Below, piece by piece: positions 4,386 through 12,529 of a stretch of DNA of 23,444 bases. Source of the stretch: a virus (lineage: Duplodnaviria > Heunggongvirae > Uroviricota > Caudoviricetes); IMG/VR virus record IMGVR_UViG_3300045988_101337, positions 1 to 23,444 of that record; one strand, given 5' to 3'. A model generated the notes under the pieces. That model was not told where the DNA came from and made no database searches. It worked only from the letters and a program-made list of their open reading frames with translations. How positions within the stretch are numbered: the stretch's first letter is position 1; each line of letters starts with the position of its first letter. Made by a program: the position numbers and the translations under genes.

Positions 4386-4657
4386 GTATTCGTATTGAAA
4401 TTGGCGAACGTTATGTCGTTACCAGTGACAGCTTTCAGTTTATTCTCCACGAGAAAAAGAGAGCGGAAAGCGGTAAAAACGCCGGTCAGGAATGGCTGGC
4501 GGTGGTTGGTTATTATCCGAAATTAAGCCAGCTCGTTTCCGGCCTGATGCATCACGATATTCTGACCGGAAGCGCAAAGTCTTTTGCTGATTTAAACGCG
4601 CAGGTTGAGCAACTCAGCAGGCGTTGTTCAGAGGCTTTTGGCTCATATGGCCGTTAA
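4382..4657 (+). CDS. Small early hypothetical protein (P2 orf83 position)
   Basis: 91-aa ORF that overlaps the start of A. Confidence 0.5.
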   Translation: MSIRIEIGERYVVTSDSFQFILHEKKRAESGKNAGQEWLAVVGYYPKLSQLVSGLMHHDILTGSAKSFADLNAQVEQLSRRCSEAFGSYGR

Positions 4658-6926
4658 AGCCTCCGGGCGTTTTGTCCCTCCTTCAGCATTTGCTGCAGGC
4701 ACCGGTAAGGCGTTTACCGGTGCTTATGCATGGAACGCGCCACGCGAGGCCGTCGGGCGCGAAAGACCCCTTACACGTGACGAGATGCGTCAGGTGCAAG
4801 GTGTTTTATCCACGATTAACCGCCTGCCTTACTTTTTGCGCTCGCTGTTTACTTCACGCTATGACTACATCCGGCGCAATAAAAGCCCGGTACACGGGTT
4901 TTATTTCCTCACATCCACTTTTCAGCGTCGTTTATGGCCGCGCATTGAGCGTGTGAATCAGCGCCATGAAATGAACACCGACGCGTCGTTACTGTTTCTG
5001 GCAGAGCGTGACCACTATGCGCGCCTGCCGGGAATGAATGACAAGGAGCTGAAAAAGTTTGCTGCCCGTATCTCATCGCAGCTTTTCATGATGTATGAGG
5101 AACTCAGCGATGCCTGGGTGGATGCGCATGGCGAAAAAGAATCGCTGTTTACGGATGAGGCGCAGGCTCACCTCTATGGTCATGTTGCTGGCGCTGCACG
5201 TGCTTTCAATATTTCCCCTCTCTACTGGAAAAAATACCGTAAAGGACAGATGACCACGAGGCAGGCATATTCTGCCATTGCCCGTCTGTTTAACGATGAG
5301 TGGTGGACTCATCAGCTTAAAGGTCAGCGTATGCGCTGGCATGAGGCGTTACTGATTGCTGTCGGGGAGGTGAATAAAGACCGTTCTCCTTATGCCAGTA
5401 AACATGCCATTCGTGATGTGCGTGCGCGCCGCCAGGCAAATCTGGAATTTCTTAAATCGTGTGACCTTGAAAACAGGGAAACCGGCGAGCGCATCGACCT
5501 TATCAGTAAGGTGATGGGAAGTATTTCTAATCCTGAAATTCGCCGGATGGAGCTGATGAACACCATTGCCGGTATTGAGCGTTACGCCGCTGCAGAGGGT
5601 GATGTGGGGATGTTTATCACGCTGACCGCGCCGTCAAAGTATCACCCGACACGTCAGGTCGGAAAAGGCGAAAGTAAAACCGTTCAGCTTAATCACGGCT
5701 GGAACGATGAGGCATTTAATCCAAAGGATGCGCAGCGTTATCTCTGCCGTATCTGGAGCCTGATGCGCACGGCATTCAAGGATAATGATTTACAGGCCTA
5801 CGGTTTGCGTGTCGTCGAGCCACACCACGACGGAACGCCGCACTGGCATATGATGCTTTTTTGTAATCCACGCCAGCGTAACCAGATTATCGAAATCATG
5901 CGTCGCTATGCGCTCAAAGAGGATGGCGACGAAAGAGGAGCCGCGCGAAACCGTTTTCAGGCAAAACATCTTAACCGGGGCGGTGCTGCGGGGTATATCG
6001 CGAAATACATCTCAAAAAATATCGACGGCTATGCACTGGATGGGCAGCTCGATAACGATACCGGCAGACCGCTGAAAGATACTGCCGCGGCTGTTACCGC
6101 ATGGGCGTCAACGTGGCGCATTCCGCAATTTAAAACGGTTGGCCTGCCGACAATGGGGGCTTACCGTGAACTACGCAAATTGCCTCGCGGCGTCAGCATT
6201 GCTGATGAGTTTGACGAGCGCGTCGAGGCTGCACGCGCCGCCGCAGACAGTGGTGATTTTGCGTTGTATATCAGCGCGCAGGGTGGGGCAAATGTTCCGC
6301 GCGATTGTCAGACTGTCAGAGTCGCCCGTAGCCCGTCGGATGACGTTAACGAGTACGAGGAAGAGGTCGAGAGAGTGGTCGGCATTTACGCGCCGCATCT
6401 CGGCGCGCGTCATATTCATATCACCAGAACCACGGACTGGCGCATTGTGCCGAAAGTGCCGGTCGTTGAGCCTTTGACTTTAAAAAGCGGCATCGCCGCG
6501 CCTCGGAGTCCTGTCAATAACTGTGGAAAGCTCACCGGTGGTGATACTTCGTTACCGGCTCCCACACCTTCTGAGCACGCCGCAGCAGTGCTTAATCTGG
6601 TAGATGACGGTGTTATCGAATGGAATGACCCGGAGGTCGTGAGGGCGCTCAGAGGTGCATTAAAACACGGCCTGAGAAGACCAAACCGTCAGCAAAGAAA
6701 CGGAAGCCCGTTAAAACCGCATGAAATAGCGCCATCGGCCAGACTGACCCGGTCTGAACGATTGCAAATCACCCGTATCCGCGTTGACCTTGCTCAGAAC
6801 GGTATCAGGCCGCAGCGATGGGAGCTTGAGGCGCTGGCGCGTGGCGCGACCGTAAATTATGACGGGAAAAAATTCACGTATCCGGTCGCTGATGAGTGGT
6901 CGGGATTCTGGCATCAATTTGAGTAA
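4647..6926 (+). CDS. A: Replication initiation endonuclease A, rolling-circle initiator (about 759 aa); listed ORF 4605..6926 trimmed to the ATG at 4647
   Basis: Large ORF in the P2 A position. Starting at MAVKASGRFVPP gives a length close to P2 A (about 761 aa). The upstream in-frame ATG at 4605 lies inside orf83 and is less likely. It contains the HxH-like metal motif (PHWHMM) and a paired-tyrosine segment (YIAKYISK) expected of rolling-circle initiators. Confidence 0.9.
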   Translation: MAVKASGRFVPPSAFAAGTGKAFTGAYAWNAPREAVGRERPLTRDEMRQVQGVLSTINRLPYFLRSLFTSRYDYIRRNKSPVHGFYFLTSTFQRRLWPRIERVNQRHEMNTDASLLFLAERDHYARLPGMNDKELKKFAARISSQLFMMYEELSDAWVDAHGEKESLFTDEAQAHLYGHVAGAARAFNISPLYWKKYRKGQMTTRQAYSAIARLFNDEWWTHQLKGQRMRWHEALLIAVGEVNKDRSPYASKHAIRDVRARRQANLEFLKSCDLENRETGERIDLISKVMGSISNPEIRRMELMNTIAGIERYAAAEGDVGMFITLTAPSKYHPTRQVGKGESKTVQLNHGWNDEAFNPKDAQRYLCRIWSLMRTAFKDNDLQAYGLRVVEPHHDGTPHWHMMLFCNPRQRNQIIEIMRRYALKEDGDERGAARNRFQAKHLNRGGAAGYIAKYISKNIDGYALDGQLDNDTGRPLKDTAAAVTAWASTWRIPQFKTVGLPTMGAYRELRKLPRGVSIADEFDERVEAARAAADSGDFALYISAQGGANVPRDCQTVRVARSPSDDVNEYEEEVERVVGIYAPHLGARHIHITRTTDWRIVPKVPVVEPLTLKSGIAAPRSPVNNCGKLTGGDTSLPAPTPSEHAAAVLNLVDDGVIEWNDPEVVRALRGALKHGLRRPNRQQRNGSPLKPHEIAPSARLTRSERLQITRIRVDLAQNGIRPQRWELEALARGATVNYDGKKFTYPVADEWSGFWHQFE

Positions 6927-7015
6927 GGATCTCATCTATACAGTATAAGTAGTTTTGACTGTAATTGATTGTTTTTTATATGGTTGCATGCATTAAATCT
7001 ACGTCAATATCATTA

Positions 7016-7024
7016 TGTTATAAT
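7016..7024 (+). promoter_or_regulatory. Candidate extended -10 promoter (TGnTATAAT) for the cargo operon
   Basis: TGTTATAAT at 7016-7024, about 30 bp upstream of the ATG at 7053, in an AT-rich intergenic region after A. There is no good -35, which is consistent with the extended -10 class. Confidence 0.35.
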
Positions 7025-7052
7025 GCATTACTTAAAAATGTTGGAGATAAAA

Positions 7053-7244
7053 ATGTTAAAGCCTGCAGATGTTGTTTGTTTGAAAAGCGGTGGATTTAAA
7101 ATGACTGTATCTGACTCTACTGAAACTCATGCTAAATGTATTTGGCATGATAAAGAAGGAGTTTTGCACGAGGAGTCATTCTCCATTGATTTACTGGAAA
7201 TAGCAGAGAGTAAAAGTGGTATGCTTTGTCGTCCACGTAAGTGA
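7053..7244 (+). CDS. Small DUF2158/YodC-like protein (63 aa), first gene of the cargo cassette; listed ORF 6969..7244 trimmed
   Basis: ATG at 7053 follows a GGAGATAAAA RBS. The N-terminus MLKPADVVCLKSGGFKMTV resembles the conserved start of YodC/DUF2158 small proteins as I recall it. AT-rich. Confidence 0.5.
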   Translation: MLKPADVVCLKSGGFKMTVSDSTETHAKCIWHDKEGVLHEESFSIDLLEIAESKSGMLCRPRK

Positions 7245-7271
7245 ATCATAATAAAATTCACGGGGGAAAGT

Positions 7272-7952
7272 ATGAAACAATACAGCGAATTAGAAAACAA
7301 TGTTAAGAGATTCATTGTTGAGCATGAAAAAGGGATTTCTATTGATGATATTCATCATAAGTTCCGGATGAAGGATGGTCAGAATCGCAAGATGGCAGAT
7401 TATCTTATTAATAATAAAAAGATAATTTTGGAGATGAAAAGTCTTTTTTCTGACAGGGTCAAGAATGTCAATGATAAACTGAATGAGTTGGTTAAAACTG
7501 ATAGTTGGCTTGCAAAAAACTGGCATGGTGCTATTCATTTAGAAGAGTTGATAAAAAGACACCCAGACTCAAAGCGATTTAGAAATGATATAATGAACTT
7601 TGCTTATGAAAATATTAAAACAAAGATAGTTAAGGAAGCTAATAAGCAAATAAATGCAACAAAGGATGTTTTGGATTTAAATGACTCGATTGGCGGGTTG
7701 ATTTTGTTAAATGATAATGTCTTTTCACATGAGTCTAATTATTTGTCAGATGAAATATTATATTTGCTAGGCACAAAGAGATATTCGAGTGTTGAGTTTG
7801 TGGTTTATATTGCAAAATTGATTGATAAACAGGTTGATGTTTGTGTGCTACTTGACAGTCAATCTAAAAATAAAAATTATATTGAATGGTATATGAATAA
7901 TGTTTTTTTATTGAACTGGGCGTCTTTTAATAAATATGCAATAAAGATGTAG
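7272..7952 (+). CDS. Uncharacterised 226-aa protein in the variable A-cos locus (candidate defence protein)
   Basis: Long clean ORF with a GGGGGAAAG RBS, 27 bp after the small ORF and so probably co-transcribed. AT-rich and Lys/Asn-rich. No P2 counterpart. A possible D ... ExK arrangement (ADYLINNKKIILEMKS) is only a motif-level hint of a PD-(D/E)xK nuclease. Confidence 0.6.
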   Translation: MKQYSELENNVKRFIVEHEKGISIDDIHHKFRMKDGQNRKMADYLINNKKIILEMKSLFSDRVKNVNDKLNELVKTDSWLAKNWHGAIHLEELIKRHPDSKRFRNDIMNFAYENIKTKIVKEANKQINATKDVLDLNDSIGGLILLNDNVFSHESNYLSDEILYLLGTKRYSSVEFVVYIAKLIDKQVDVCVLLDSQSKNKNYIEWYMNNVFLLNWASFNKYAIKM

Positions 7953-8271
7953 TGGTGTGGATGGATATGAAATGAGTCAACCAAGATGCACCTTGGTCAG
8001 TAATCTCATGTGAGATACCACATATAACACCAAAAGTGTCAGGTTGATGGCCATTGTTCACCGTTTACAGCAGATTATGGTCAACGAAAATCTGACGCCT
8101 GACGAGCTGGTCGGGTGTGCCGAAATAGTCTGGGATAATTACGGGCGGTTTAACTATATCGGTCAGTCCAGAGTTGCGCCACCACCACGCAGACGATAGA
8201 GAACGCCGCCAGTCGTGAAACTTGTTTTCAGGCTGGCGGGGTTGAACAACGAGCGAAGTGAGGCGTTAGCA

Positions 8272-9213
8272 TTAAGTTAATTTTAATGAATGGTACTCTA
8301 TCGAGCTGATTGTAGATGCGATATATTTACGATCATTTACAGAGAGTATTGCCGCTAGTAGACGACATACCAGAGCCTGCATTTGTAGCAATATATCGCT
8401 ACCATATTGACAATCATTGATACTAGAGAAACCAAGCGGTTGCCCATTAAAAATGGCTTCATGAAAATTATCATTGCGTATAACTGAAACATTACATTCA
8501 TCTGTTGCCCATGACGGGATTTTTACACCGTAATTTTCGCACATCCAATACACTCTATTTTGATGAGATGGTTTTTTCTCTTTAATGACTTTATCCCTTT
8601 CATCCCATGCTATAGCAAAACAGCAATCAAGAGCCATATAAAGATACTGGAATTTCTCAAAGGAAAGGTATAGTGGGTTATGTGACAGGAATAGGGAGTG
8701 TATCACCGCAGCTATTCTTTTAATGGAGCGATCATCTTTTTGTTTGTCTTTTATATAGTTAAGTGCTAGCTCTATTACTTCTTTTTCAGAGCATCCAACG
8801 AGAATAAAGTCGGTTAACTTAGTGGGCTTGATAGTGGTTGCATCAAGAAAACCAGCGTCAGTGGTTGTCAATCTTATACCCTTGAAAAAAGAGAGGCACC
8901 ACACAACAAAGTTGAGAGTTTCTAACGAGGATGTGTTTTTTAATTTTAGTGTGTGCGTTTTGGGCATGCCGAATACTCGGTAACTATAAGGCATTGTGCA
9001 TGTGTCACCATTAAGGTTATATACCTTTCGATTCCCAGGGTATATCCAACCATTAACAACGTTTTTATCATTGTTAATACGTTCCACGTTCTCAATAAGA
9101 CCGGGTAAAGTACGCAAAGAAAATTGTTCAGTCTCAATGTTAACTTCTACTGGATAGTATCCAAACTCCGAAATAATCTCATTTGGTTGCTGTTCGTCAA
9201 CTTCACCTTGCAT
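8272..9213 (-). CDS. Uncharacterised 313-aa protein with a C-terminal RNxxxH (HEPN-like) motif; candidate abortive-infection or defence effector occupying the P2 old position
   Basis: Clean 313-aa ORF on the minus strand with a GGAGA RBS upstream of the ATG at 9213. AT-rich. It contains RNDNFH (R-x4-H) near the C-terminus and a second R-x5-H (RIAAVIH). It is convergent with the 226-aa gene. No P2 homologue is recognisable. Confidence 0.6.
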   Translation of the reverse strand: MQGEVDEQQPNEIISEFGYYPVEVNIETEQFSLRTLPGLIENVERINNDKNVVNGWIYPGNRKVYNLNGDTCTMPYSYRVFGMPKTHTLKLKNTSSLETLNFVVWCLSFFKGIRLTTTDAGFLDATTIKPTKLTDFILVGCSEKEVIELALNYIKDKQKDDRSIKRIAAVIHSLFLSHNPLYLSFEKFQYLYMALDCCFAIAWDERDKVIKEKKPSHQNRVYWMCENYGVKIPSWATDECNVSVIRNDNFHEAIFNGQPLGFSSINDCQYGSDILLQMQALVCRLLAAILSVNDRKYIASTISSIEYHSLKLT

Positions 9214-9451
9214 AACTTTCTCCGTTCAAAAACAGGCACGATAATTCTCGTAAGCCTATCATGTTCGCAAAGTATCCATACCTGTGGATTTTGTAAATTT
9301 AAGTTGATTTGTCATTAAATAAGCCGTTGCATGCAACAAGTGAATGTTTTTGCATGCGTCGGGGATGTCCGTTCAGGCTGCGTGCGGTCAGGACTGGTGC
9401 GGATCCATAGTATCTATGCAACTGCATTAAAACCGCCCCATGAAGCGGGCG

Positions 9452-9470
9452 GGCGAGGCGGGGAAAGCAC
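9452..9470. other. cos site (P2-type 19-nt cohesive end region)
   Basis: GGCGAGGCGGGGAAAGCAC matches the P2/186 cohesive end as I recall it. It lies about 80 bp beyond the 3' end of portal gene Q, as in P2. Confidence 0.6.
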
Positions 9471-9522
9471 TGCGCGCTGTTTTGTGCGGTGGTGAGTGTG
9501 TGAGGGCGTGATGACGGGGTGT

Positions 9523-9544
9523 AAAAAAGCCGCCCGCAGGCGGC
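9523..9544 (-). terminator. Rho-independent terminator after Q (minus strand)
   Basis: Minus-strand reading gives GCCGCC-TGCG-GGCGGC followed by TTTTTT, immediately after the Q stop codon. Confidence 0.55.
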
Positions 9545-9549
9545 GATGT

Positions 9550-10584
9550 TCAGCCGTTGTCAGTGTCCAGTGAGTAGTTTTTAAAGCTGATGACCTCCTG
9601 ACCGAGCCAGCCGTTTATCTCGCGGATCCTGTCCTGTAACGGGATAAGCTCATTGCGGACAAAGACCTTTGCCACTTTCTCAATATCTCCCAGTGACCCG
9701 ACGTTCTCCGGCTTGCCGCCCATCAACTGAAAGGGGATACGGTGCGCGTCCAGCAGGTCAGCGGCGCTGGCTTTTTTGATATTAAAAAAATCGTCCTTCG
9801 TTGCCACTTCACTGAGCGGGATAATTTTAATGCCGTCAGCTTTCCCCTGCGGGGCATAGAGAAACAGATTTTTAAAGTTGTTGCGACCTTTCGACTTAAC
9901 CATGTTTTCGCGAAGCATTTCGATATCGTTGCGATCCTGCACGGCATCGGTGACGTACATGATGTATCCGGCATGTGCGCCATTTTCGTAATACTTGCGG
10001 CGGAACAGCGTAGCTGATTCATTCAGCCAGGCAGAATTAAGGGCGCTGAGATATTCCGGCAGGCCGTACAGCTCCTGATTAATATCCGGCTCCAGCAGGT
10101 GAAACACGGAGCCGGGCGCGAAAGGTGTCGGCTCGTTGAAGGACGGCACCCACCAGTAAACATCCTCCTCAACACCACGGCGGGTATATTTTGCCGGTGA
10201 GGTTTCCAGTCTGATGACCTTACCGGTGGTGCTGTAGCGCTTTTCCAGAAACGCATTACCGAACACCAGAAAATCCAGCACAAAGCGGCTGAAATCCTGC
10301 TGGGAAAGCCACGGGTGCGGAATAAACGTTGAAGCCAGAATATTACGTTTGACGTAAATCGGTGAGCTGTGATGTACGGCAGCACGCAGGCTTTTTGCCA
10401 GACCGGTAAAGCTGACCGGTGGCTCATACCATCTGCCGTTACTGATGCACTCGACGTAATCCAGAATGTCACGGCGGTCGAGTACCGGCACCGGCTCACC
10501 AAAGGTGAATGCCTCCATTTTCGGGGCGCTGGCGGTGATTGTTTTTGCCGCAGGTTGCGGTGTTTTCCCTTTTTTCTTGCTCAT
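9550..10584 (-). CDS. Q: Portal protein (344 aa)
   Basis: 344-aa ORF, the same length as P2 gpQ. It is translationally coupled to P (start and stop overlap at 10584) and adjacent to cos. Confidence 0.93.
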   Translation of the reverse strand: MSKKKGKTPQPAAKTITASAPKMEAFTFGEPVPVLDRRDILDYVECISNGRWYEPPVSFTGLAKSLRAAVHHSSPIYVKRNILASTFIPHPWLSQQDFSRFVLDFLVFGNAFLEKRYSTTGKVIRLETSPAKYTRRGVEEDVYWWVPSFNEPTPFAPGSVFHLLEPDINQELYGLPEYLSALNSAWLNESATLFRRKYYENGAHAGYIMYVTDAVQDRNDIEMLRENMVKSKGRNNFKNLFLYAPQGKADGIKIIPLSEVATKDDFFNIKKASAADLLDAHRIPFQLMGGKPENVGSLGDIEKVAKVFVRNELIPLQDRIREINGWLGQEVISFKNYSLDTDNG

Positions 10585-12356
10585 CAGTAAAACTCCAGAA
10601 TGGTGGATGTCAGCGGAGTGCTGATACCGGCGGTGAGTGGCTCATTTAACAGGGCGTGCATGGTCGCCCAGGCGAGGTCGGCGTGGCTGGCTTCCTCGCT
10701 GCGGCTGGCCTCATAGGTGGCGCTGCGTCCGCTGCTGGTCATGGTCTTGCGGATAGCCATAAACGAGCTGGTGATGTCGGTGGCGCTGACGTCATATTCC
10801 AGACAGCCACGGCGGATGACGTCTTTTGCCTTGAGCACCATTGCGGTTTTCATTTCCGGCGTGTAGCGGATATCGCGCGCGGCGGGATAGAACGAGCGCA
10901 CGAGCTGGAACACGCCGACACCGAGGCCGGTGGCATCAATCCCGATGTATTCAACGTTATATTTTTCGGTGAGTTTGCGGATGGATTCCGCCTGGGTGGC
11001 AAAGTCCATGCCTTTCCACTGGTGACGCTCAAGTATTCTGAATTTGCCACCGGCCACCACCGGCGGTGCCAGCACCACGCATCCGGCGCTGTCGCCACGG
11101 TGTGACGGGTCGTAACCAATCCATACCGGACGTGAGCCGAACGGATTGACGGCAAACGGCGCATAGTCTTCCCATTCTTCCAGCGTATCGACCATGCAGC
11201 GTTGCAGCTCCTCGAACGGGAACACCGACGCCTTGTCGTCAACAAATTCACACATGAACAGGTTTTTAAAATCGTCGGCGCTGTTTTCACGTTTGAGCTG
11301 CTCAATGTCGAACAGCGTGCAGCCACCTTTCAGGGCATCCTCAATGGTGACAATCTGCCGCCACTGGCCGTCCGCACAGAGAAGCCCACCGGCAAGGGCG
11401 TTATGACTGACGTCGATTTCCACGCGTTCGGCGGCGCTGGCGCGTCCCCGGTTGAACAGTTCACCTGACCAGAACGGGTAGGCGTCGTGCGCCAGCGTGG
11501 ACGGGGTGGAGAAATAGGTCGAGCGCAGGTGACTCTGTGAGGCCATACCTGATGCCACCTTACGCAGTACCTGAAAATTCGGGATCCAGAAAATCTCGTC
11601 GACGTACAGGTCGCCGTTATGGCTCTGCGCGGTGTTGGAGTTGGTGCCGAGAAAAATCAGTTTTGCGCCGTTATTGCCAAGGACAATCGGGTCACCGGTC
11701 AGGTCAACGTCAACCAGACGGGCAAAGGCGATGATGTATTCACGGAACACATACGCCTGCGTTTTACTGGCCGACAGAAAAATCTGGTTATGACCGGTTT
11801 TCAGGGCGCGCAGCAGCGCCTCGCGGGAAAAATAAAACGTCGCGCCAATCTGGCGGGATTTCAGGATATCGCGGATGCGGTGCTCAAGCCCGGCGCGATA
11901 CCAGTGCAACTGATATTCAAAAGACTGCTCAAAGAAAATCTGCTCCAGCTTTTCGATGGCCTCGTCACTGAAAAAATTCTTTTTCGGTTTGCGACGCCCG
12001 CCTTTGTTGCGGTTAGCGACGTTCGGATTAAGGTCTGCCTCGTTGCCGGTCTGACTGTAGCGGTTGACCCGTGCCAGTCGTTCAATCTGACGTCCCAGCA
12101 GGTCAATTTCCTTGAAGTCACCGCCGGTTTTCTGCGGTTTGATGATGAGCTGGGTCAGCCGCGCTTCCAGACTCATTTCGACACGGCTGATGGGGGCAAC
12201 GCTGTCCCAGCCGTCGCGCTGTTTCCAGCTCTGCACCGTCGGGCGTTTCATCTGCAACATGGCGGCAATCTGCGGCACGGAAAACCCCTGCCAGTACAGC
12301 AGCGCCGCCTGACGACGCGGGTCGTGTAAAAGAGTGGTGTCTGTGGTGATGGTCAT
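10584..12356 (-). CDS. P: Terminase large (ATPase) subunit (590 aa); listed ORF 10584..12386 trimmed to the ATG at 12356
   Basis: Starting at MTITTDTT gives 590 aa, the length of P2 gpP. It sits upstream of portal in the leftward Q-P late operon. Confidence 0.93.
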   Translation of the reverse strand: MTITTDTTLLHDPRRQAALLYWQGFSVPQIAAMLQMKRPTVQSWKQRDGWDSVAPISRVEMSLEARLTQLIIKPQKTGGDFKEIDLLGRQIERLARVNRYSQTGNEADLNPNVANRNKGGRRKPKKNFFSDEAIEKLEQIFFEQSFEYQLHWYRAGLEHRIRDILKSRQIGATFYFSREALLRALKTGHNQIFLSASKTQAYVFREYIIAFARLVDVDLTGDPIVLGNNGAKLIFLGTNSNTAQSHNGDLYVDEIFWIPNFQVLRKVASGMASQSHLRSTYFSTPSTLAHDAYPFWSGELFNRGRASAAERVEIDVSHNALAGGLLCADGQWRQIVTIEDALKGGCTLFDIEQLKRENSADDFKNLFMCEFVDDKASVFPFEELQRCMVDTLEEWEDYAPFAVNPFGSRPVWIGYDPSHRGDSAGCVVLAPPVVAGGKFRILERHQWKGMDFATQAESIRKLTEKYNVEYIGIDATGLGVGVFQLVRSFYPAARDIRYTPEMKTAMVLKAKDVIRRGCLEYDVSATDITSSFMAIRKTMTSSGRSATYEASRSEEASHADLAWATMHALLNEPLTAGISTPLTSTILEFY

Positions 12357-12529
12357 GAATACCTCGCCGTGATGAATACACGGCAAGGCTACTGAGTCGC
12401 GCCCCGCGATTCGCTAAGGTGCTGTTGTGTCAGTGATAAGCCATCCGGGACTGATGGCGGAGGATGCGCATCGTCGGGAAACTGATGCCGACATGTGACT
12501 CCTCTACTCACTATTCAGGACTCCTGACA

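Follow-up and report, generated by a model that had tools for sequence, protein, structure and literature searches.

Among the characterized single-protein HEPN defences, ApeA and DARNA (PD-T7-3) form inactive oligomers in which a cue is sensed by non-catalytic domains, whereupon tRNA anticodon loops are cut (bioRxiv 10.64898/2026.01.26.701840; bioRxiv 10.64898/2026.02.22.705581). ApeA (Gao et al. 2020; Ec1/Ec2ApeA) acts by abortive infection through cleavage of tRNA anticodons; a ligand that binds away from the active site switches it on, the cue being 5'-phosphorylated deoxydinucleotides (bioRxiv 10.64898/2026.01.26.701840); its N-terminal region is made up mostly of beta strands and harbors conserved aromatic residues (PMC3710099). 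DARNA stays inactive until single-stranded DNA (ssDNA) is presented to it by the single-stranded DNA-binding protein of the phage, then cuts tRNA anticodon loops, again leading to abortive infection (bioRxiv 10.64898/2026.02.22.705581). By definition, helix 3 of a HEPN domain ends in an Rx4-6H motif whose Arg is followed by a polar residue (N, D or H), helix 2 contributes a second conserved acidic residue, often as part of Ex3[KR], and an insert lies between helices 2 and 3 (PMC3710099). HEPN RNases are metal-independent endoribonucleases whose composite active site arises upon dimerization. Here we analyze a 313-aa protein, the equivalent of P2-EC67 ORF313 and hereafter called ORF313, encoded in IMG/VR record IMGVR_UViG_3300045988_101337, a 23,444-nt stretch of a P2-like (Peduovirus) prophage (the window). 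By predicted structure and motif ORF313 is a HEPN protein, yet it belongs to no described HEPN family, and it is best described as a candidate single-gene HEPN abortive-infection protein with a new N-terminal domain, outside ApeA, DARNA, HepT-MntA and OLD.

The coding sequence, stop codon included, occupies positions 8272-9213 on the minus strand, starts with ATG and is preceded by a GGAG Shine-Dalgarno sequence 6 nt upstream (9220-9223, minus strand), which is the annotated ribosome-binding site of ORF313 in the near-identical record AM157369; the open reading frame (ORF) is a real one, as had been supposed when it was first singled out from the bare sequence. A full-length AlphaFold2 model built on a 45-sequence alignment (pLDDT 83.8, pTM 0.84) separates the protein into an N-terminal alpha+beta domain (residues 1-142; 8788-9213, minus strand) and a C-terminal HEPN-like helical domain (residues 143-313; 8275-8787, minus strand). 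The helices of the latter are predicted at residues 163-178 (H1), 184-204 (H2, starting with E186), 217-228 (an insert carrying H217 and R220), 242-255 (H3, carrying RNDNFHE) and 274-289 (H4), with a long loop between H3 and H4. The sequence R246-N-D-N-F-H251-E252, the predicted HEPN ribonuclease (RNase) active-site motif (codons at 8458-8478, minus strand), is thus carried by helix 242-255, is followed by the long loop, and has Asn directly after the Arg. In the model, both the order of the helices and the Asn match the published HEPN definition, and the original prediction, which had staked its case in advance on a HEPN-like fold, is borne out in this respect.

The same conclusion is favored by comparison with solved structures. 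In a fold search of a library of 48,164 chains, HEPN proteins dominated the top of the ranking and outscored generic helical bundles, even though the latter are much more abundant. Structurally, residues ~143-313 were matched best by HepT of the HepT-MntA system (7ae2/5yep), YutE (1ylm), AF0298 (2hsb), AbiV (9bj5) and HepS (9oik), all of which share with this region a four-helix HEPN core and an Rx4H-type site. When residues 1-142 were searched alone, the HEPN matches disappeared, so the match stems from residues ~143-313. Foldseek against the PDB returned nothing at E<=0.001.

The motif on its own carries little weight. The Rx4-6H signature had been put forward as the mark of a HEPN RNase; upon shuffling the 313-aa sequence 20,000 times, however, Rx4H arose in 20%, Rx4-6H in 50% and RNxxxH in 1.7% of the shuffles. 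The presence of Rx4H by itself is not beyond chance, and it is conservation together with the predicted fold that supports the assignment. Multisequence alignment of 45 relatives of 44-78% identity (alignment A1) revealed that R246, N247, H251 and E252 are invariant. In a second alignment of 52 relatives reaching down to 23% identity (alignment A2), only G112, E186, R246, H251, G261 and R284 remain invariant, and N247 and E252 are conserved at >=90%. Across the family, R[N/H]xxxH[E/D/Q] is kept in 210 of the 219 full-length members. Four of the nine members lacking the standard motif carry variants of it (RAGAIHE, RNSTVHE, RGDLMHE and RRDLIHE); the other five have no motif, and at least three of these align with no more than a portion of the family profile. 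The conservation of the Rx4H residues among homologues, which the original prediction had left as a condition of its claim, is accordingly observed.

The RNDNFH motif (residues 246-251) had been presented together with a second Arg-His pair, RIAAVIH, which is indeed found at residues 166-172; R166, though, is not conserved in the 52-sequence alignment, and RIAAVIH was rejected as an alternative HEPN site and as part of the conserved one. An invariant Glu in both alignments, E186 (codon at 8656-8658, minus strand), opens helix 2 and could be the other conserved acidic residue expected in a HEPN active site; the residue at +4 from it is Tyr, as opposed to the K/R of the often-seen Ex3[KR]. As a separate observation, the family profile matched the first 45 residues of the E. 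coli ribonucleotide reductase subunit R2 (NrdB) at E 0.013 through an RNDxxHEAxFFxxPLGF segment (residues ~243-284, window ~8380-8490); this match probably arose by chance, since both the R and the H are missing from NrdB at the corresponding positions.

The original prediction had recognized no motif in roughly the first 200 residues; the N-terminal domain is still without a recognizable relative, but in the model it is shorter, at about 142 residues, and adopts a fold that has no solved structural relative. Its best-conserved residues are FGYYP (17-21), W56, RVFGxPKTH (79-87), G112, R114, D124 and D135. Conservation of the polar residues T86/H87, R114 and D135 equals or exceeds that of the HEPN core, and because of this the polar cluster suggests a specific binding site, consistent with the domain being a candidate sensor or regulatory domain.

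ORF313 shares with ApeA the organization of a single gene, a non-catalytic N-terminal region followed by a C-terminal HEPN domain, and the lack of an antitoxin, and Apea-type genes are likewise found in P2 and P4 hotspots. It differs from ApeA in that the latter is about 500-600 aa long, has its catalytic Arg at position 502 or 521, comprises N-terminal, Mid and HEPN domains and assembles into decamers or dodecamers, whereas the 313-aa protein has two domains. Membership of the ApeA family was rejected: HEPN_Apea (PF18739), the ApeA N-terminal domain and the PADLOC ApeA model all failed to match. DARNA is also a stand-alone HEPN protein with an Rx4H site, but it is 456 aa long and has its HEPN domain at residues 1-159, followed by an all-alpha C-terminal Pds5-like ssDNA-binding domain, while in ORF313 the alpha+beta domain comes first and the HEPN domain is C-terminal; a PADLOC scan, expected to include PD-T7-3, gave no match. 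The HepT-MntA arrangement was looked for as well, and no adjacent MNT nucleotidyltransferase gene was seen in any context examined. With P2 Old the protein shares an identical slot and orientation, being the first gene inside cosR on the minus strand. P2 old is an exclusion gene expressed by the lysogen (PMC9122126), and its product combines an OLD-family ABC ATPase with a TOPRIM nuclease, neither of which was detected in ORF313 by Pfam or by the fold search; the resemblance is positional, and functional by analogy only.

The position of the gene within the prophage bears out this likeness. ORF313 lies on the minus strand directly inside cos, as the last cargo gene between the replication gene gpA (4605-6926, plus strand) and the portal gene gpQ (9550-10584, minus strand), the latter being followed by the terminase gene gpP (10584-12386, minus strand). 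The gpA-gpQ locus is a published P2 defence hotspot whose cargo is known to act in virus-virus competition (PMC9122126). The hotspot has a GC fraction of 0.28-0.41, against 0.50-0.60 in the flanks, and the gpA-gpQ region of the window shares 99.6% identity with Escherichia phage vB_EcoM-720R8 and 92.9% with AM157369, a record titled 'P2-EC67 proviral ORF226 and ORF313'. A P2-type cos cohesive-end sequence, GGCGAGGCGGGGAAAGCAC (9452-9470, plus strand), forms the right boundary of the cargo module; window positions 9423-9470 align with the final 48 nt of P2 (AF063097), the last 19 nt of which are annotated there as cosR. Counting inward from cosR, the first gene of AF063097 is old, on the minus strand and with transcript starts of its own, and for this reason ORF313 can be said to occupy the old slot in the old orientation. 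The stand-alone, old-like placement proposed at the outset thus stands, all the more as no conserved partner gene accompanies ORF313 (see below).

Local signals are compatible with separate expression of the gene. A consensus scan picked out a sigma-70-like promoter candidate, ATGACA-16 nt-CAAAAT (9288-9315, minus strand; 9/12 matches, a pattern match only), which could supply ORF313 with its own transcript in the manner of P2 old; AF063097 has the transcript starts of old-tin annotated in the corresponding position. Two terminator-like hairpins, likewise pattern matches only from a terminator scan, are found on the minus strand, one with a T-run between cos and ORF313 (9433-9452) and the other just past gpQ (9529-9544), and both would be expected to stop read-through from the late Q-P operon into ORF313. 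A scan of the hotspot region (6900-9600) against Rfam returned no RNA family, its sole match being a meaningless snoRNA, and a cis-encoded noncoding RNA or RNA antitoxin for ORF313 was rejected on that result.

The 313-aa protein had been called an orphan, which is apt insofar as it has no annotated function but not in the sense of lacking relatives. At E<=1e-3 the protein has 260 homologues, and searching with a profile brought in 648 clusters (50% identity), the named members of which all belong to Gammaproteobacteria, with relatives in Salmonella, Klebsiella, Pseudomonas, Acinetobacter and Aeromonas; an identical protein is present on 799 contigs. All family members are named 'hypothetical' save for one UniRef label, 'Apea-like HEPN domain-containing protein'. 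The coding sequence matches phrog_5937 (PHROG 5937), a family of unknown function, end to end at 660 bits, and the homologous coding sequence is a hypothetical protein both in AM157369 (92.9% nucleotide identity over the locus) and in E. coli RefSeq genomes (<=99.9% nucleotide identity). In the survey of Rousset et al., the gene occurs in 93 of 5,426 complete E. coli genomes and at 218 P2-hotspot loci, and is listed in Table S5B as P2-hotspot system #11, a single gene with a blank domain field and no comment; in the E. coli P2 hotspot it ranks 11th among cargo by frequency (PMC9122126). The representative of system #11 is a clear homologue of the 313-aa protein. The family has therefore already been catalogued, as P2-EC67 ORF313, PHROG 5937 and system #11, without a domain, fold or function; the three are catalogue entries only.

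Judged qualitatively, ORF313 and its homologues lie in the company of defence genes, namely in the P2 gpA-gpQ hotspot and beside Gabija, type I restriction-modification (R-M) with GmrSD, AbiH with TIR, and PIN-domain genes (PIN_8 and PIN_12 across contexts). The immediate companions vary. Whereas ORF226 and a DUF2158 gene accompany ORF313 here and in strain H9, it stands beside an ImmA/IrrE peptidase gene and a hypothetical protein gene in a sequence type 131 (ST131) prophage, and beside other small ORFs in Yersinia phage VB-YPM-4. A P. aeruginosa homologue has Gabija (GajA/GajB) nearby, and DUF932 and ParB_N genes belong to the same island. Providencia offers three settings of an identical protein: after the type I R-M and GmrSD genes; in an integrase-bearing island adjoining smpB, with DUF3800, AbiH and a TIR protein; and with PIN_12, an IS91-family transposase and AbiH. 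Homologues from Acinetobacter, Stenotrophomonas and P. viridiflava are found in variable or mobile regions. No neighbor is common to P. aeruginosa, Aeromonas, Acinetobacter, Stenotrophomonas, Providencia and P. viridiflava, and ORF313 therefore has no antitoxin or partner gene. A local exception to this variety was noticed in Aeromonas veronii (L006-L009), where the homologue always follows, ~100 nt downstream on the same strand, a gene (4684-5895) of the AlkZ-like (PF06224) winged-helix DNA glycosylase family, and the two genes may constitute a lineage-specific two-gene unit.

Taken together, ORF313 is probably a stand-alone, autoinhibited HEPN RNase that acts in abortive infection and is carried by a moron cassette in the old slot. 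The mechanism we propose is drawn by analogy with the single-protein HEPN defences ApeA, DARNA/PD-T7-3 and HepS, from which we infer the RNase activity, its target and trigger, the oligomeric state and the protective phenotype. As a self-contained accessory (moron) cassette, ORF313 occupies the cos-proximal slot of the gpA-gpQ defence hotspot, and the protein would be made constitutively in the lysogen from its own promoter. The invariant R246, H251 and E186, together with the conserved N247 and E252, would form a metal-independent endoribonuclease site. The protein would dimerize or oligomerize through its HEPN domains and be kept inactive without an antitoxin until a superinfecting phage provides a cue that is sensed by the N-terminal domain, acting as a sensor or gate, and the RNase is released. 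An essential RNA would then be cut, tRNA anticodon loops being the most likely target, so that translation halts and the infection aborts, protecting the lysogen population and the resident prophage. A bolder version of this proposal holds that ORF313 is a new single-protein anti-phage system whose N-terminal domain is a new kind of sensor, binding a small molecule, a nucleic acid or a phage protein and allosterically unlocking the HEPN RNase; this is quite possible, although we would stop short of calling it probable.

Other functions can be envisaged for the same protein. An active HEPN RNase might serve outside defence, either as a toxin for prophage addiction or stabilization, or as a lysogenic-conversion factor that reshapes host RNA under stress. 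We consider such a role unlikely, given that no conserved antitoxin or MNT partner appears in the nine kinds of neighborhood, that the 6900-9600 region holds no Rfam RNA family, and that defence is the better fit for a gene met repeatedly in the old slot and beside R-M, Gabija, AbiH and TIR genes. It is likewise improbable that the C-terminal domain is a HEPN look-alike, or a non-catalytic HEPN domain acting by binding, with the conserved R and H serving binding or structure. Non-catalytic HEPN domains typically lose Rx4-6H (PMC3710099), whereas R, H, N and E are here essentially universal at the canonical helix-3 position, and in the fold search HEPN proteins outranked generic helical bundles. 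That a gene borne by a phage and adjoining cos, in a hotspot whose cargo acts in competition between viruses (PMC9122126), might be a counter-defence or inter-phage weapon for lytic growth, degrading for instance host defence RNAs or the transcripts of competitors, is a natural thought but a very improbable one. Close relatives turn up frequently in islands outside phages and in defence islands of chromosomes, which is unexpected for an anti-defence gene of this kind, and the terminator-like hairpins separate ORF313 from the late operon, while the gene has a promoter-like site of its own, as does the lysogenically expressed old.

Several findings nevertheless weigh against an abortive-infection HEPN RNase. 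The original prediction had looked to profile searches for a link to a HEPN family, and this was not obtained: Pfam, NCBIfam and PADLOC scans of the protein and of 97 relatives (45 close and 52 diverse) gave nothing significant, the best sub-threshold matches among the relatives being single ones to HEPN_RiboL-PSP (E 0.074) and HEPN_Apea (E 0.15). Sequence searches of the PDB with the single sequence and with three profiles retrieved no HEPN protein, returning only weak and probably spurious matches to the ribonucleotide reductase R2 N-terminus (E 0.013) and to RyR-repeat proteins. Comparison by hhalign of the ORF313 family with an Apea-like family of 40 sequences, seeded by a 318-aa HEPN_Apea-annotated P4-hotspot protein from Rousset Table S1B, gave a probability of 0.26% when the two profiles were compared and of 0.05% when the single sequence was used, a result that also counts toward the rejection of ApeA membership. 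In the model, the loop following the motif (residues ~256-273) is of low confidence (pLDDT 56-57). The Aeromonas homologue adjoins its AlkZ-like gene amid housekeeping genes, a setting that is not obviously defensive. A literature search by accession, ORF313 and PHROG found no study of any member, and neither system #11 nor system #63 is among the systems tested by Rousset et al. (PMC9122126). A 'putative HEPN' from the P2 hotspot that was tested by these authors gave no protection in their panel; this protein (pFR103) was considered as a possible match to ORF313 and rejected, being a different protein.

The ORF313 module spans about 8270-9451, bounded by cos on the right and on the left by a junction segment (8012-8269, plus strand) that is 91-93% identical among P2-like phages with differing cargo. 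This segment of ~260 nt is matched in Wphi (gp92 region), Peduovirus P2 OU784549, P22H4 ('Orf97') and many others, does not occur in the hotspot of AF063097, the classical P2 sequence, and, lying between two cargo modules, has the look of a recombination joint at which modules are exchanged. Within it is a 51-aa ORF (phrog_11386; 8044-8199, plus strand), which PGAP names 'meiotically up-regulated 80 protein' in one genome, surely a mis-annotation. The second, upstream module of the same hotspot consists of the genes for a small DUF2158 protein (Pfam E 1.2e-7) and for the 226-aa protein ORF226 (phrog_20483), at 6969-7244 and 7272-7952 on the plus strand; the 226-aa protein has no Pfam or PADLOC match, and its GC is about 0.32. 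The pair is listed as P2-hotspot system #63, with 67 loci and no function given (Rousset 2022, PMC9122126). The two modules are independent, ORF313 being found elsewhere without the pair. That ORF313, ORF226 and the DUF2158 protein together form a three-gene system, perhaps the validated '3 hypothetical proteins' system of Rousset et al., was rejected because the pair is listed separately as #63, ORF313 occurs without it, and no PADLOC model matches any of the four ORFs.

Two further observations concern the hotspot in other genomes. In the E. coli H9 prophage (NZ_CP195976, L016, 1960-3499), the portal gene and the ORF313 homologue are separated by an insertion, at or close to cos, of an IS1A element and a gene for a 263-aa hypothetical protein, which suggests a prophage that is no longer packageable yet retains its cargo gene. 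System #126 ('FdhE') of Rousset Table S5B, also from the P2 hotspot, shows an RNxxxH-type motif ('...NLRNDIEHYQF...') in its helical N-terminal half, followed by a Cys-rich, zinc-ribbon-like tail, and may be another unrecognized HEPN cargo.

A HEPN gene in the old slot will not surprise a specialist; the new part is the N-terminal domain, and the candidate is both frequent and compact. If our proposal is correct, a frequent prophage gene of unknown function would become a named defence system, and a function would be gained both for 648 clusters of related proteins and for the cargo that ranks 11th in frequency at the E. coli P2 hotspot. Since Pfam, NCBIfam and PADLOC v2 models miss the protein, defence counts in P2-like prophages would then be underestimates. 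The finding would also bear on the prediction of phage host range and on the design of phage therapy for ST131 and other clinical lineages that carry the gene. For HEPN proteins more broadly, ORF313 would provide a compact 313-aa model for the antitoxin-free restraint and infection-triggered switching of a HEPN RNase, and would bring a sensor fold and a trigger not seen before to the HEPN anticodon nucleases, whose number is growing.

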